Source: Minisyncoccota bacterium
GTDB lineage: Bacteria; Patescibacteriota; Minisyncoccia; Moranbacterales; UBA2206
DNA length: 64,000 bases
NCBI GenBank assembly: GCA_031291955.1
Contig: JARLIA010000005.1
Location: 209,057-273,056 of the forward strand
Direction of reading: 5' to 3'
The position numbers were made by a program, and so were the translations under genes. Each line of letters starts with the position of its first letter. Position 1 is the first letter of the stretch. Shown here piece after piece: positions 8,650-59,079 of this stretch. A model generated the notes under the pieces. The model made no database searches. It was not told where the DNA came from and worked only from the letters and a program-made list of their open reading frames with translations.

Positions 8650-8807
8650 TAAAAATTTTCAATTTTCAATTTTCAATTTTTCTGGCTGCGCCAGATCTCG
8701 CATAGCGAGACAAACAATTCAATAATTTTTTAATTTATCAAACGTTAGAAAATTTAGTTATTGGAAAATTCGAAATTGTTTAGAAATTAGAAATTGAAAA
8801 TTAGAAA
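8650..8807 (-). repeat. upstream element copy 1: heptad arms (GAAAATT/AATTTCT)n around a ~100-bp conserved core with two small hairpins (TCTCGCTATGCGAGA, CTGGCGCAGCCAG), ending a few nt upstream of the topA start
   Basis: >90% identical by eye to 23055-23213 and 25912-26069 in reverse orientation; heptad arms form imperfect terminal inverted repeats. Confidence 0.6.
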
Positions 8808-15909: not shown

Positions 15910-17277
15910 ATGGCAAAATCTCAAAGTAAGACTGTAAAAAAAACCAGAACTAAATCTAAGATTGAAAGAGCGCCCGTTGAACCATTGGTTCTTCAGCCCC
16001 TTCGCGGGATGAAGGATATTTTGCCGACGGATCAGCCATATTGGGACCAGGCGAGGAGGGTGACGGAACGCCTGGCAAGAGATTATGGATTTTCACGGAT
16101 CGATATCCCTTTGGTAGAATATGCTAATCTTTTCGAAAGGAGCATCGGAGAGGGAACGGATATCGTGGAAAAAGAGATGTATGCCTTTACTACAAAAGGT
16201 AATGACAAGGTAGTACTGCGGCCGGAGTTCACGGCTGGAATTTGCCGCAGCTACATCCAGCATGGTATGAGTGTTTTGGCTAAGCCGGTGAAACTTTTTT
16301 CTTTTGGACCGCTTTATCGTTATGACCGTCCGCAGGAAGGCCGACAGCGGGAATTCTATCAAGCCGATTTTGAATCTTTCGGGGAAATTGATCCGATTTT
16401 GGATGCCCAGATGATCCAGATCGCGAGCCGGATCGTCCAATCGCTGGGGATCAAATCTGTTCAGATCCAAGTCAATTCGATCGGATGTCCGGTCTGTCGC
16501 AAAGATTATCGGGCGCTTTTGGTGAGCTATTTGGAATCAAAGAAAAACAAACTTTGTCAGGATTGCAAACGGCGGATGTATGTCAACCCGCTCCGGGTTT
16601 TGGATTGCAAGGAAGATAAGTGCGCCCAAGTGGCGGCGGCTGCCCCGCAATCCGTCGATCATTTGTGCGATGACTGTCGGAACCACTTTAAGACTCTTTT
16701 GGAATATTTGGACGAACTTGATTTGCCATATATCATCAATCCGCGCTTGGTGCGTGGTTTGGATTATTATACCAAGACGGTTTTTGAAATTTGGTCCGGC
16801 TCGGAAGATGGACGGAAGTCGTCACTGGGCGGCGGCGGACGTTATGACAAACTGATCAAGACGATGGGGGGCGAAGATACGCCGGCCATCGGTTTTGCTT
16901 TGGGAATCGAGCGGTTGATTTTGGAAATGAAACGGGTTCAGGCCAAACCGTACAAGGCGCCCAAGCCGAAAGTTTTTCTGGCGCAACTCGGGGCTCTTGC
17001 CAAGAAAAAGAGTCTCCGGCTTTTTTCCGAGATGGAAAGGAATGGAATTTTGGTGGCGGAAAGTTTTGGCCGCGGATCGCTCAAGTCCCAACTCAAAGTG
17101 GCCAACAGGTTGGGCGTGGAGATTACTTTGATCTTGGGGCAGAAGGAAACACTAGATGGAACAGTAATTGTCAAGAACATGAGCACCGGCGTCCAGGAAA
17201 CGGTCAGTACAGACAAGATGGTTGATCTCATTAAGAAGAAACTGAAGGCGGATAACGTCGTAGTCTACCACAGCTAA
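15910..17277 (+). CDS. hisS: histidine--tRNA ligase
   Basis: Class II aaRS motifs (LRGMKDILP…, FERSIGEGTDIVEKEMY, GGGRYD); ATG at 15910 preferred over the TTG at 15901. Confidence 0.9.
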   Translation: MAKSQSKTVKKTRTKSKIERAPVEPLVLQPLRGMKDILPTDQPYWDQARRVTERLARDYGFSRIDIPLVEYANLFERSIGEGTDIVEKEMYAFTTKGNDKVVLRPEFTAGICRSYIQHGMSVLAKPVKLFSFGPLYRYDRPQEGRQREFYQADFESFGEIDPILDAQMIQIASRIVQSLGIKSVQIQVNSIGCPVCRKDYRALLVSYLESKKNKLCQDCKRRMYVNPLRVLDCKEDKCAQVAAAAPQSVDHLCDDCRNHFKTLLEYLDELDLPYIINPRLVRGLDYYTKTVFEIWSGSEDGRKSSLGGGGRYDKLIKTMGGEDTPAIGFALGIERLILEMKRVQAKPYKAPKPKVFLAQLGALAKKKSLRLFSEMERNGILVAESFGRGSLKSQLKVANRLGVEITLILGQKETLDGTVIVKNMSTGVQETVSTDKMVDLIKKKLKADNVVVYHS

Positions 17278-17691: not shown

Positions 17692-17699
17692 AAATCCGA

Positions 17700-17835
17700 A
17701 GCCCGAAACCCGAAACCCGAAATCCGAAACAAATTTGAAATCAGAATGATTAAATCCAAAACCGTTTTGAATTTATGATTTTGATATTGTTTCGAATTTC
17801 GCACTTCGAATTTCGAATTTATTTTAGAGAGGAGG
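17700..17835. repeat. inverted blocks of CGAAA-type heptad repeats (cccgaaa)n … (ttcgaat)n
   Basis: cgaagcccgaaacccgaaacccgaaatccgaaac … gtttcgaatttcgcacttcgaatttcgaattt. Confidence 0.4.
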
Positions 17836-18193: not shown

Positions 18194-18643
18194 ATGTTAA
18201 AACAAAAAATAGCCGAGGATCTCAAAGCGGCCATGAAGGCCGGCGATGCGGCCAAGCGCGATACGCTCCGGATGCTGGATTCGATGGTGAAAAACGTCGA
18301 GATTGAAAAGAAGAAACGCGAAGAGGGACTCTCTGACGCTGAAGTTCAGGAAGTGGCGGCGCGGGCGGTGAAACTTAGGAACGATGCCATTGTCCAATAT
18401 GAGAACGGCGGCCGGCCGGAACTGGCAGAAAAAGAGAAAAGGGAAGTGGAGATACTTTCGACTTATCTGCCGGAGCAAATGGACGAATCGGAGACGAGGG
18501 CGCAAGTGAAAGAAATCATTTCTTCGCTCGGCGCAACGTCCAAATCTGAAATGGGAAAGGTGATGGGCGCGGCCATGGGAAAACTCAAAGGCCAAGCTGA
18601 CGGAAACTTGGTTAAAAAGATTGTGGAGGAAGAATTGAAATAG
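18194..18643 (+). CDS. GatB/YqeY domain protein
   Basis: MLKQKIAEDLKAAMKAGDAAKRDTLRML typical YqeY N-terminus; ATG at 18194. Confidence 0.8.
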   Translation: MLKQKIAEDLKAAMKAGDAAKRDTLRMLDSMVKNVEIEKKKREEGLSDAEVQEVAARAVKLRNDAIVQYENGGRPELAEKEKREVEILSTYLPEQMDESETRAQVKEIISSLGATSKSEMGKVMGAAMGKLKGQADGNLVKKIVEEELK

Positions 18644-18721
18644 CCGAATCGCGGGAGCACCCAAAAGGTGCTTTTTGCGTGCTGGGATAAATTTGTCCGA
18701 GACCGTTGTGCAATATTTTTT

Positions 18722-19183
18722 ATGAAATTGATTCTCGAATTAAACGACCGCGTCGGAAGCGGAATCAAAAGATCTTTTATTTCTAAAATAATAAAAGAAA
18801 CTTTGGCGCGGGCGGGAAAAGAAAGTTTAGAAAAGAAAAACATAACGATCAGCATGGCGGTTATTTCCGAGGATGAAATCCGGGAACTTAATCGGACTTA
18901 TCGAAAAAAAAACAAGCCGACCGATGTTTTGTCGTTTGCCGAACATGAAAACCGCCGGGAGTTGGAAGAGGCGCTGGCGGGGATCGAGGATGTCTTTCTT
19001 GGCGAGTTGGTTTTGTGCTATAATGACATGGTGAAATATTGCGCCCAAAACAAAGTGGCTATTCAAGAAGAAACAGCGCGAGTTATTTCCCACGGCACGC
19101 TCCATCTTTTGGGTTTTTCCCATGGCAAAAAAATGTTTGAGATTCAAGATGAAGTCGCAATAAATAACAATATAAAAATTTGA
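18722..19183 (+). CDS. ybeY: rRNA maturation RNase YbeY
   Basis: HGTLHLLGFSHG metal-binding motif; ATG at 18722. Confidence 0.8.
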   Translation: MKLILELNDRVGSGIKRSFISKIIKETLARAGKESLEKKNITISMAVISEDEIRELNRTYRKKNKPTDVLSFAEHENRRELEEALAGIEDVFLGELVLCYNDMVKYCAQNKVAIQEETARVISHGTLHLLGFSHGKKMFEIQDEVAINNNIKI

Positions 19184-19202
19184 CAGTCTAACGATTTAAT
19201 TT

Positions 19203-19565
19203 ATGCATCGGCTCAAAGAGTTTGCTAAAAGTTTAAGCTTTGCCTGGCGTGGATTAAAATACGCGATCCAAAACGAAAGGAATTTCCAAAATGAAATGGC
19301 AACCGGTGTTATTGTTCTGGCGGCCATGGTCTATTTTCGCGTTTCCCGGGGAGAATCAATCGTCCTAGTTCTCGTTATCATGGGCGTTCTGATTATGGAA
19401 ATGTTGAATACTATCATGGAAAGAGTGGTGGATATCCTGAAACCGCGCGTTCATCCATACGCCCGTCTCATCAAAGATCTGATGGCAGCCAGCGTTTTGA
19501 TGGCTTCCATCATGGCTATTGTTATCGGACTTATTATTTTCATTCCATATATTTTGAAAAAGTGA
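19203..19565 (+). CDS. dgkA: diacylglycerol/undecaprenol kinase family protein (DgkA-like)
   Basis: 120 aa, three TM segments, DAGK_prokar-like (…AWRGLKYAIQNERNFQNE…). Confidence 0.75.
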   Translation: MHRLKEFAKSLSFAWRGLKYAIQNERNFQNEMATGVIVLAAMVYFRVSRGESIVLVLVIMGVLIMEMLNTIMERVVDILKPRVHPYARLIKDLMAASVLMASIMAIVIGLIIFIPYILKK

Positions 19566-22604: not shown

Positions 22605-23054
22605 ATGATCTGTCCATTCTGCAATTACAATGAAACCAAAGTCGTCGATTCGCGCGACACCAACGATGGCAAAACCACCCGCCGCCGCCGCGAGTGTCTG
22701 AAATGCCATGTCCGATTCTCGACTTACGAAGAAGTAGAACTTCTGCATCTTACCGTTTTGAAAAGAGATGGGCGGAAAGTCGATTATGATAAAAATAAAA
22801 TTGAATCGGGAATTCGGAAAGCCCTCGAAAAACGTCCGGTGTCGGAAGATAAGTTTGCCAAGCTCCTGGGGGACGTGGAATATTGCTTGCAATCATTGGA
22901 GAAATCGGAGGTGAGCACCAAGGAAATCGGGAAATTAGTTTTGAAAAAGTTGCGGGAGTTGGATGAAGTGGCCTACGTGCGGTTCGCGAGCGTCTATAAA
23001 TCGTTCGGGAGCATTGAAAGCTTCAAGAAGGAGTTGGATACGTTTGATAAATAA
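22605..23054 (+). CDS. nrdR: transcriptional repressor NrdR (Zn-ribbon + ATP-cone)
   Basis: MICPFCNYNETKVVDSRDT…RRRECLKCHVRFSTYE…. Confidence 0.9.
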   Translation: MICPFCNYNETKVVDSRDTNDGKTTRRRRECLKCHVRFSTYEEVELLHLTVLKRDGRKVDYDKNKIESGIRKALEKRPVSEDKFAKLLGDVEYCLQSLEKSEVSTKEIGKLVLKKLRELDEVAYVRFASVYKSFGSIESFKKELDTFDK

Positions 23055-23213
23055 TTTCTAATTTTCAATTTCTAATTTCTAAACAATTTCCAATGCTTCA
23101 ATGACTAAATTTTCAAACGTTTAATAACTTGAAAAATTATTGAATTGTTTGTCTTGCTATGCGAGATCTGGCGCAGCCAGAAAAATTGAAAATTGAAAAT
23201 TGAAAATTTAGTT
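23055..23213 (+). repeat. upstream element copy 2 (heptad arms + conserved core), directly ahead of the nrdD start
   Basis: >90% identical to the 8650-8807 (reverse complement) and 25912-26069 cores; ends …gaaaattgaaaattgaaaatttagttgactATG. Confidence 0.6.
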
Positions 23214-25911: not shown

Positions 25912-26069
25912 AAATTTCTAATTTTCAATTTCTAATTTCTAAACAAATCCCAATTTTTCAATGATTAAATTTTCAAACGTTTAATAACTTGAAAAATTAT
26001 TGAATTGTTTGTCTCGCTATGCGAGATCTGGCGCAGCCAGAAAAATTGAAAATTGTGAATTGAAAATTT
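25912..26069 (+). repeat. upstream element copy 3, directly ahead of nrdG
   Basis: Same core as copies 1 and 2; ends …gaaaattgtgaattgaaaatttATG. Confidence 0.6.
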
Positions 26070-32226: not shown

Positions 32227-32364
32227 GTAATTTTTTAAATTTCTAATTTCTAATTTCCAATTTCTAAACAATTTCAAATTTCAAATGACTGAATTCCTAA
32301 ATTGAAAATTGAGTCATTGATAATTGTTTGAAAATTGAAAATTGAGAATTGAAAATTCTCAATT
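32227..32364. repeat. heptad-repeat element (AATTTCT)n…(GAAAATT)n abutting the rnc start
   Basis: aatttctaatttctaatttccaatttctaaacaatttcaaatttcaaatgactgaattc…gaaaattgaaaattgagaattgaaaattctcaattATG. Confidence 0.5.
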
Positions 32365-52239: not shown

Positions 52240-52556
52240 TCCACTTCCAATTCCAGGAGAATCTGCGGATGTTGAATTTCAATGGAATCTCGTCCTTGAA
52301 CCTCGCCGGAGTTTCTTTGTTCGCGCCACTACGCGACAAAGAACCTCCGGCTTTCTTTTTTTATTTTTATTTTCAAGAAAATTTATTTTTTAGCATCAAA
52401 AAATACTTTTGTGTAAAAACTGGGGATAACTTTTATAAAAATGGCTTTAAAAAGCTGTTTTTTGTTGTTTAAAATCCGGAATAAAAGTGTTGACGCTTGT
52501 AGTGTGGTGGAGTAAAATAGAGACACGTGGTTAAAAAGTGGTAAATTGTGGGGAAT

Positions 52557-52992: not shown

Positions 52993-53973
52993 ATGACTAT
53001 TCATAAACCAGTATTGCTGAAGGAGACTATTGAACTTTTAAATCTAAAAAAAGGAATGACTGTCGTGGACGCCACTCTGGGGGGAGGCGGACACGGGCGC
53101 GAAATTCTGGAGAGAGTTGGTGATGGCGGGCGATTAATTGCCTTTGATCTGGATATTCATGCTATCGAAAGTTTCGCGGAATTTTCAATTTTCAATTTTC
53201 AATTTTCAAACAATTATCAAATTCCAATTTACAAATTCCAAAACATAATTCTGGCTAATGCTAATTTTACAGATTTAGAGAAAGTGTTGGAAGTTTTGGA
53301 AATTGAAAAAGTCGACGCGGTAATGGCGGATCTGGGGTGGTCGAGCGACCAATTGACCGGGAAAGGAATGAGTTTTCAGGCGGATGAGAAATTGGACATG
53401 AGATTGGACGAGAGTCAGGAGCTGACGGCCAAGAAAATAGTCAATGAATATGCTGAAGAAGACTTGGGAAAAATATTAAGAGAATATGGGGAGGAGAAAT
53501 TTTGGCGAGTTATTACGCGAAGAATAACTGAATATAGAAAAAGCAAAGGAATAGAGACCACGCAAGAGCTGGCGGAAATCATAAAGAGTGCCGTGCCGCC
53601 GAAATACCGTTACGCTAAGATCCATCCGGCCACCAAGACGTTCCAGGCCATCCGCATCGAAGTCAATCAGGAGCTGTCTAATTTGAAAAAATTTATACCG
53701 CAGGCAATCGAAGTTTTGGTTTCTGGCGGAAGACTGGCCATTATCAGTTTTCATTCACTGGAAGATCGAATTGTCAAGCATATGTTCGCGGAAGATGCCA
53801 GGGGAAGCATCTCCACGGATCCGATAACTGGACAAAAAATAGTGGAGCGCGCGCCGGTGACAAAACTTATCACCAAAAAACCGGTCGCGCCGGCGGAGGA
53901 AGAGATTGGAGAAAATCCGCGCGCCCGAAGCGCGAAATTGAGAGTCTGCGAGAGGTTACGAAATACGAAATGA
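52993..53973 (+). CDS. rsmH: 16S rRNA (cytosine1402-N4)-methyltransferase RsmH, carrying an in-frame repeat-derived insertion
   Basis: MTIHKPVLLKETIELL…DATLGGGGH; SAM-dependent methyltransferase fold. Confidence 0.85.
   Translation: MTIHKPVLLKETIELLNLKKGMTVVDATLGGGGHGREILERVGDGGRLIAFDLDIHAIESFAEFSIFNFQFSNNYQIPIYKFQNIILANANFTDLEKVLEVLEIEKVDAVMADLGWSSDQLTGKGMSFQADEKLDMRLDESQELTAKKIVNEYAEEDLGKILREYGEEKFWRVITRRITEYRKSKGIETTQELAEIIKSAVPPKYRYAKIHPATKTFQAIRIEVNQELSNLKKFIPQAIEVLVSGGRLAIISFHSLEDRIVKHMFAEDARGSISTDPITGQKIVERAPVTKLITKKPVAPAEEEIGENPRARSAKLRVCERLRNTK
53160..53250 (+). repeat. (GAAAATT)-type heptad repeat block inserted in-frame inside rsmH
   Basis: gaattttcaattttcaattttcaaacaattatcaaattccaatttacaaattccaaaac encodes FAEFSIFNFQFSNNYQIPIYKFQN. 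Confidence 0.5.
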
Positions 53974-54094
53974 ACGAACTACGAAACGCTTATGTCATCC
54001 TTTTTCGTACTTTCGTATTTTGTATTAATTTCGTAGTTCGTAAATAAAAAAAACATAAACAAAAGCATTAATATTTCAGGGGGACTGAAGATTA
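53974..54094. repeat. ACGAAA-type heptad palindromic block
   Basis: cgaaatacgaaatgaacgaactacgaaacg … tttcgtactttcgtattttgtattaatttcgtagttcgtaaa. Confidence 0.4.
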
Positions 54095-58941: not shown

Positions 58942-59079
58942 TCTATGAAAAAATTTTCAATTTACAATTTTCAATTTTCAATCAATTTTCAATTTATTAA
59001 TTTACAATGGCTAAGCAATGCAAATTGAAAATTGATACTTGAAAATTTATTGTAAACTGATAATTGAAAATTAATGCAA
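58942..59079. repeat. heptad-repeat (CAATTTT/GAAAATT) element between recR and dnaB
   Basis: aattttcaatttacaattttcaattttcaatcaattttc…caaattgaaaattgatacttgaaaatttattg…gaaaattaatg. Confidence 0.5.

Follow-up and report, generated by a model that had tools for sequence, protein, structure and literature searches.

An in-frame heptad-repeat insert in rsmH resembles one arm of a palindromic element dispersed in Patescibacteria

Organization of the rsmH locus

The window, the whole 64-kb stretch of DNA analyzed here, carries on its plus strand a 326-aa ORF that is assigned to RsmH, the 16S rRNA m4C1402 methyltransferase, by Pfam, by sequence matches to RsmH/MraW entries in the PDB, and by an AF2 model. 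The protein matches the Pfam family Methyltransf_5 (PF01795; E = 2.8e-103), with residues 3–321 covering profile positions 3–308 of 309, and both the Gly-rich SAM-binding loop (GGGGH, residues 30–34) and the DLGxSS motif (DLGWSS, residues 113–118) are invariant or nearly so. The gene sits in an mraZ-rsmH-ftsL-ftsI-murE cluster, an mraZ-rsmH-ftsL-PBP-Mur ligase order that is the same in all fetched relatives. An identical protein is annotated in a ‘Candidatus Pacebacteria’ MAG, and the closest relatives of the window protein carry Moranbacteria names. The features of the gene are as follows.

52993–53973, plus strand: rsmH, 326-aa ORF.
53176–53241, plus strand: repeat-derived in-frame insert AEFSIFNFQFSNNYQIPIYKFQ, codons 62–83, delimited by orthologue alignment, codon alignment, and loop-length survey.
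53180–53207, plus strand: four perfect AATTTTC heptads, with the unit and copy number of the intergenic arms at 8654–8681 and 23181–23208.
53208–53241, plus strand: tail AAACAATTATCAAATTCCAATTTACAAATTCCAA beyond the heptads, matched in a DNA alignment to the inner portion of the 5′ arm of intergenic elements.
53957–54040, no strand assigned: heptad palindrome of a second type, (TACGAAA)n...(TTTCGTA)n, RNA fold z = −3.65.

Extent of the insert and its place in the fold

Tandem Repeats Finder reports AATTTTC ×4.3 at 100% identity over 53180–53209, with degenerate 14/25-nt periodic rows that carry on to 53241. The 14-mer TTTTCAATTTTCAA, allowing up to two mismatches, is found 39 times in the window versus 4.65 expected (sd 2.2), a count reached by 0 of 100 shuffles. 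These results bear out a sequence-only reading of this DNA, which had placed a heptad repeat in frame inside rsmH and had given its translation correctly (FAEFSIFNFQFSNNYQIPIYKFQNIILANANF, residues 61–92 of the ORF). The length of ~90 nt proposed there was too large; the repeat-derived stretch is ~66 nt, of which ~30 nt are perfect heptads.

The boundaries of the insert come from an alignment of 120 orthologues together with the Escherichia coli protein, a codon alignment of 14 genes, and a loop-length survey of 100 RsmH genes. By these measures, 22 codons stand in place of about six native loop codons, for a net gain of 13–16 residues. The spacing between the β2 Asp and the β3 ‘NF’ is 41 residues in the window RsmH, 28 in most bacterial RsmH proteins, and 25 in insert-free close relatives, in a survey drawn from metagenome loci that are almost all distant RsmH genes (38–46% identity). 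E. coli RsmH and the solved RsmH structures are without the segment. The insert therefore lies, as had been proposed, in a loop of variable length between conserved methyltransferase segments, with both the reading frame and the Pfam domain match retained.

The AF2 model of the window RsmH (pLDDT 90.3, pTM 0.87; insert pLDDT ~80) superimposes on 1n2x, 1wg8, and 3tka with target-normalised TM scores of 0.91–0.93 and rmsd values of 2.0–2.4 Å. In the model, helix αB (residues 55–62) is followed by a short helix (66–69), a strand (79–82), and β3 (85–88), and the insert is predicted to fold as a Phe/Asn/Gln/Ile-rich excursion, comprising the short helix and a β-hairpin, at the edge of the Rossmann sheet. 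In the class I methyltransferase topology, the αB–β3 connection lies where an edge strand has its N-terminal end, away from the SAM site. The insert loop would, on the modeled fold, face away from both SAM and the rRNA site, and for this reason the enzyme would be expected still to work.

Palindromic heptad elements in the window

Besides the copy in rsmH, the window holds six intergenic palindromic copies of the heptad family, three of which are near-identical over ~160 bp and occur in both orientations. None has an assigned strand.

8654–8810: full palindromic heptad element with a GC double-hairpin module, ~160 bp, filling an intergenic spacer.
15842–15909: short palindromic heptad element that ends at a start codon, RNA fold z = −2.3.
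23052–23208: full palindromic heptad element with a GC module, near-identical to 8654–8810 in the opposite orientation, RNA fold z = −4.6.
25913–26068: full palindromic heptad element with a GC module, third near-identical copy.
32238–32357: palindromic heptad element that does not carry the GC module, RNA fold z = −3.0.
58952–59072: palindromic heptad element between two minus-strand genes.

RNA folding covered three of the six (23052, 32238, and 15842). An Rfam scan of the whole window returned two tRNAs only and no family for the heptad block. Inspection by eye of the ends of the three long copies revealed no clear target-site duplication, and ‘mobile element’ is used for this family by analogy.

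The 3′ arm, (GAAAATT)n, ends 0–12 nt before the next start codon (15909, 26068, 32357, 59072, and 8654 on the minus strand) with no Shine-Dalgarno sequence in between, and the 5′ arm begins close to, or at, the stop codon of the preceding gene, so that the elements take up entire intercistronic spacers. A shared orientation of the six elements relative to transcription was considered and dropped, as it is trivially true for any palindrome. The only asymmetric part is the GC module, which is in the 3′ arm in 3/3 copies, too few for a conclusion.

The GC module (window positions 8681–8712, 23143–23180, and 26003–26040) is 30 nt long and consists of two related 15-nt hairpins, TCTGGC-NNN-GCCAGA and TCTCGC-NNN-GCGAGA, placed at a TTTT^CAAA junction. 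The stems are kept and the loop bases vary, and the module looks like a site-specific nested mini-element.

The insert as a solo arm of the family

The rsmH insert aligns at the DNA level with the 5′ arm of the intergenic elements through the four heptads, then AAACAATT, then CAA..TTCCAAT..AAATTYCAAAC. From these alignments, the 5′ arm of the family reads as (AATTTYN)4 followed by AAACAATT and a tail, and the assignment of the rsmH segment to the heptad-repeat family of this genome, made earlier from sequence inspection, is upheld.

The nested modules recur within rsmH as well. The orthologue L103 carries TCTGGCTATGCCAGATCTCGCGAAGCGAGA in its insert at a TTTT^CAAA junction (about 10219–10248). 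Both this two-hairpin module and the type of junction are those of the window intergenic copies; in L103, the module is translated as SGYARSREAR. Small GC palindromes of other sequence are nested in the array at the DNA level in L105, L001, and L022, and several more orthologue proteins have extra peptides at the spot where the nested modules lie.

On its plus strand, the insert is open in 3/3 frames, across which the heptad array encodes cyclic permutations of NFQFSIF, whereas the minus strand has stops in 3/3 frames. The complementary arm, which a whole palindrome would bring along, has stops in all frames, so that what can survive in a gene is one arm alone, and in this orientation. The rsmH copy is indeed a single arm rather than a hairpin-forming palindrome; it forms no significant hairpin (z = −1.16), in contrast to the full-length copies at 32238 and 23052 (z = −3.0 to −4.6). 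A candidate downstream partner arm, GGAAATTGAAAAAG at 53296–53309, was rejected, as its pairing with the array is no better than in shuffles (z = −1.16) and it encodes the conserved native LEIEK. The strand asymmetry fits the notion that the solo arm is the form of the element that survives in a gene.

Distribution of the insert among orthologues

The junctions TTC GCG/GAA TTT ... CAA/AAC (insert boundaries marked by slashes) are identical in nine independent assemblies of related Moranbacteria, taken from JGI, ENA, Logan, and NCBI, at 57–80% protein identity. A further sequence, L110, shares 100% identity with the window across 6981 nt and for that reason is unusable as an independent check. 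Of the 120 orthologues, 33 (about a third) share the peptide type of the window and 42 lack an evident insert; a further 46 carry different inserts, mostly low-complexity and heptad-like. The sequence-only reading had taken the presence of the segment as conserved protein in close relatives to speak against a repeat origin; relatives do carry it as conserved protein, but the DNA is still that of a repeat element, and the repeat origin stands.

Length and unit variants occur at the same site. In L112, the array is 21 nt shorter; L109 shares the left junction but has (AAATYCC)x7. The L111 orthologue is insert-free in appearance and retains TTCGCGGAATTT-CAAAA, which we read as a probable deletion scar, not a naive empty site. 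One codon in the tail of the insert is TAC in the window, L102, and L103, TAT in L001, and TTC or TTT in most more distant relatives, a pattern that fits vertical inheritance of the insert. In a single-protein NJ tree, too weak to count gains and losses, the insert has a patchy distribution, and many losses or several gains are therefore needed. Taken together, the sequence comparisons indicate that the insert is old and inherited and that it has gone from some lineages, where a scar is left behind.

Heptad arrays recur in the αB–β3 loop of RsmH, which is a hot spot for them. Four perfect TCAAAAG units, for instance, occupy it in L012 (about 10150–10190). In the insert-free L108, the native DNA of the loop is GAAAATTTCAAAAAAG, which resembles both types of unit, and native sequence of this kind may make the spot prone to such events. 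More broadly, RsmH genes of more distant Patescibacteria (L012, L078, and L076) have other heptad arrays in this loop, some of them with nested GC palindromes.

Nucleotide-level evolution of the insert

The nine genomes used to compare rates are related to one another; across them, the insert and the rest of the gene have the following values.

Codon identity at residues conserved between pairs: insert 84%; rest of gene 50% (61% expected, same amino acids).
pS (Nei-Gojobori): insert 0.36; rest of gene 0.75.
pN (Nei-Gojobori): insert 0.12; rest of gene 0.22.
Invariant codons in columns where the residue is conserved in at least 8/9: insert 11/18; rest 10/149 (Fisher p = 1.4e-7).

In the pairwise codon comparisons, Pro is always CCA (67/67) and Ala is always GCG (28/28). 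The units also change in concert: all four are AATTTCC in L102 and L106, and all are AATTTTC in the window and L103. Informative sites divide 181:154:131 over how the window, L102, and L103 branch, and the number of concerted unit switches is therefore given as at least one. Judged from these substitution patterns, the insert still evolves like repeat DNA and not like ordinary coding sequence.

The same element in other genes

The rsmH copy is the only in-frame copy within the window. An identical 36-mer is present in frame in the following genes of other Patescibacteria, with host families assigned by Pfam.

KsgA: L015 (Falkowbacteria) and L017.
TsaD, ValS, FemAB-like, and Mur ligase: L016 (Saccharibacteria).
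Tgt: L019 (Moraniibacteriota).

The two KsgA/RsmA proteins are 53% identical overall, and the first 38 nt of their elements are 100% identical, with differing tails; the pattern seen in rsmH is therefore repeated in a second gene. Their elements (L015 10209–10297; L017 3557–3609) occupy the same site, after D-x-L-K-F and before K-I-V-A-N-L-P-Y. In L016, at least four housekeeping genes within 20 kb hold the element in frame (9766–11004, 11111–13363, 15028–16332 on the minus strand, and 18498–19442 on the minus strand; TsaD, ValS, Mur ligase, and FemAB-like), some of which have two inserts each, and this genome looks heavily colonised by the heptad element. A scan of viral contigs for the exact 36-mer gave zero matches, and a search of a large protein database with a 64-aa concatenate of the three frames gave no scored match, for which the low complexity of the query is the probable cause.

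On the evidence of these sequences, the parent palindromic element appears to be widespread in Patescibacteria. Of the earlier proposal that the repeat family can colonise coding sequence neutrally, colonisation is thus borne out in other genes and other Patescibacteria, whereas ‘neutral’ is doubtful because the synonymous sites of the insert are far more conserved than those of the rest of the gene.

Origin and maintenance of the insert

We favor, with a probability of about 0.7, the explanation that the insert is an inherited and tolerated solo arm of a MITE/RPE-like element, with gene conversion or slippage holding it near the family consensus. The arm would have become fixed in frame in the αB–β3 loop of RsmH in an ancestor of a Moranbacteria clade, and would have been inherited since, with shortening or loss by slippage in some lineages. 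Its stop-free strand and its loop position would allow RsmH to tolerate it, and homogenisation against that consensus, through either of these two processes, would give rise to the synonymous conservation and the concerted units. The insert has several traits of repeat DNA (synonymous conservation, a concerted unit switch, 21-nt contractions, and a nested GC module in one relative), and a function of its own in rsmH would be unnecessary to explain this behavior. Two caveats apply: slippage in place could have contributed, the native loop DNA GAAAATTTCAAAAAAG being heptad-like, and the synonymous conservation could instead reflect a DNA or RNA function within rsmH.

The second caveat, taken as a full explanation, would make the insert a DNA or RNA motif with a function of its own inside coding sequence, for example an array bound by a conserved Patescibacteria protein or an internal or antisense promoter, with selection acting on its nucleotides. 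We consider this unlikely. The strong conservation of synonymous sites would be accounted for, as would the finding that precisely four units plus AAACAATT recur in different genes and in distant classes; the intergenic 3′ arms that end 0–12 nt from start codons and three weak sigma-70-like matches on the minus strand inside the insert point the same way. However, these promoter matches are 9/12 and chance-prone in AT-rich repeats, the block is lost or shortened in many orthologues, its unit sequence varies between close relatives, the host genes and insertion sites are diverse, and no Rfam family was matched. A broader form of the idea, that (AATTTTC)4-AAACAATT is a conserved functional motif of Patescibacteria, such as the binding array of a lineage-wide protein or a regulatory RNA segment, seems to us doubtful. 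If it were true, genes of the translation apparatus (RsmH, KsgA, TsaD, Tgt, and ValS) and of cell-wall synthesis would share a control system, and the near-identity of the block at synonymous sites, despite hosts that have diverged to ~50% identity, would be explained.

It is improbable that slippage during replication of the native loop sequence produced the array in place, with the likeness to intergenic elements reflecting convergence in an AT-rich genome. Such an origin would suit the GAAAATTTCAAAAAAG of insert-free relatives and the TCAAAAG array of L012 in the same loop, but the intergenic similarity runs beyond the heptads into AAACAATT and the tail, the same GC module is nested in L103, and the 36-mer is identical in unrelated genes of other classes. 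A non-heptad tail and junctions common to family members across genomes, which would speak against this origin, are already seen in part.

A contingency locus, in which rsmH would be switched off or on by frameshifts each time a single 7-nt unit was gained or lost, affecting the downstream division genes, is very improbable. The array is a perfect tandem repeat in an ORF with a unit length that is not a multiple of three, as this would require; however, it has four units only, that number is the same in the perfect arrays of the window, L102, L103, and L106 and in the intergenic copies, and the only length variants seen (the 21-nt-shorter array and the near-complete loss) are in frame. No frameshifted allele was seen, in protein searches of a kind that would miss truncated genes. 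An assembly artefact or intein-like spacer, the suggestions of the sequence-only reading, has a negligible probability: beyond the repetitive nature of the sequence nothing favors it, nine relatives assembled independently carry the insert with identical junctions, its 22 codons (versus >130 aa for an intein) hold no intein motifs, with neither Cys/Ser at the start nor His-Asn at the end, and AF2 folds it as part of the domain.

Relation to known repeat systems

The closest analogue of the solo arm and its parent element is the set of Rickettsia palindromic elements (RPEs), in the sense that the heptad element seems to work like an RPE, not that it belongs to the RPE families. RPEs are palindromic repeats that occupy intergenic sites and also lie in frame within conserved housekeeping genes, where the open frame of the element adds a peptide to the host protein that is judged compatible with fold and function, and their insertions are common to related species (PMC10969869). 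The family represented in rsmH is likewise palindromic, both intergenic and in frame, and shared in its insertion by relatives. It belongs to another phylum, however, and homology is unlikely given the phylum and the composition of the units. Moreover, RPEs enter genes whole, at ~100–150 bp, whereas rsmH has one arm of ~66 nt, as the other arm has stops; the rsmH arm has four 7-nt tandem units that give the same cyclically permuted peptide in every frame; and the coding copy stays near the family consensus at synonymous sites.

Other systems share fewer traits. Bacterial MITEs and REP-like repeats (ERIC, Correia, BOX, and REP/BIME) are, like the heptad elements, short, non-autonomous, hairpin-forming fillers of intergenic spacers with several near-identical copies per genome in both orientations, but for the heptad family no terminal target duplications were identified, its arms are heptad arrays, and a 30-nt GC double-hairpin is nested at TTTT^CAAA. 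Phase-variable contingency loci also have a perfect tandem repeat in an ORF with a unit not divisible by three, but rsmH has four units only, with a copy number conserved across species and no out-of-frame alleles seen. Low-complexity insertions are familiar from AT-rich genomes, for example the Asn-rich inserts in Plasmodium proteins; these too are composition-driven extra peptides in a loop of a conserved enzyme, whereas the DNA in rsmH is a recognisable member of a dispersed family with defined junctions, which goes beyond local expansion. We found no description of this heptad element in the literature, in a search of incomplete coverage that does not prove novelty.

Repeat elements inside protein-coding genes are best documented in Rickettsia, and a similar process would now be seen in Patescibacteria, whose genomes are tiny and which form a very large but poorly understood group. 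A simple rule, that an arm free of stops in every frame is the piece that survives in genes, would account for odd Phe/Asn/Gln-rich segments in annotated CPR proteins, and such segments should be taken neither for lineage-specific functional motifs nor for assembly errors. Shared junctions, scars, and nested hairpins could serve as a marker for tracing relationships, and the conservation of the element across distant classes is unusual.

Further heptad palindromes and the mraZ upstream region

The last codons of rsmH (RNTK) and its stop codon come from the second-type palindrome at 53957–54040, (TACGAAA)n...(TTTCGTA)n. The RsmH of L002, which is 59% identical to that of the window, has the same C-terminus, LRNTK. 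A third palindrome family, (CCGAAAC)n ... (CGAATTT)n, is seen at 17692–17820, flanked by two genes of the plus strand and placed ahead of a GGAGG ribosome-binding site. Its arms pair well only when G-U pairs on the minus-strand transcript are counted. Immediately upstream of mraZ, at 52523–52552, GTGG repeats recur with 10-bp spacing (GTGGttaaaaaGTGGtaaattGTGGgg) and resemble MraZ operator boxes. In L105, a reverse-transcriptase (RVT_1) gene at 508–1446 is found directly upstream of mraZ.
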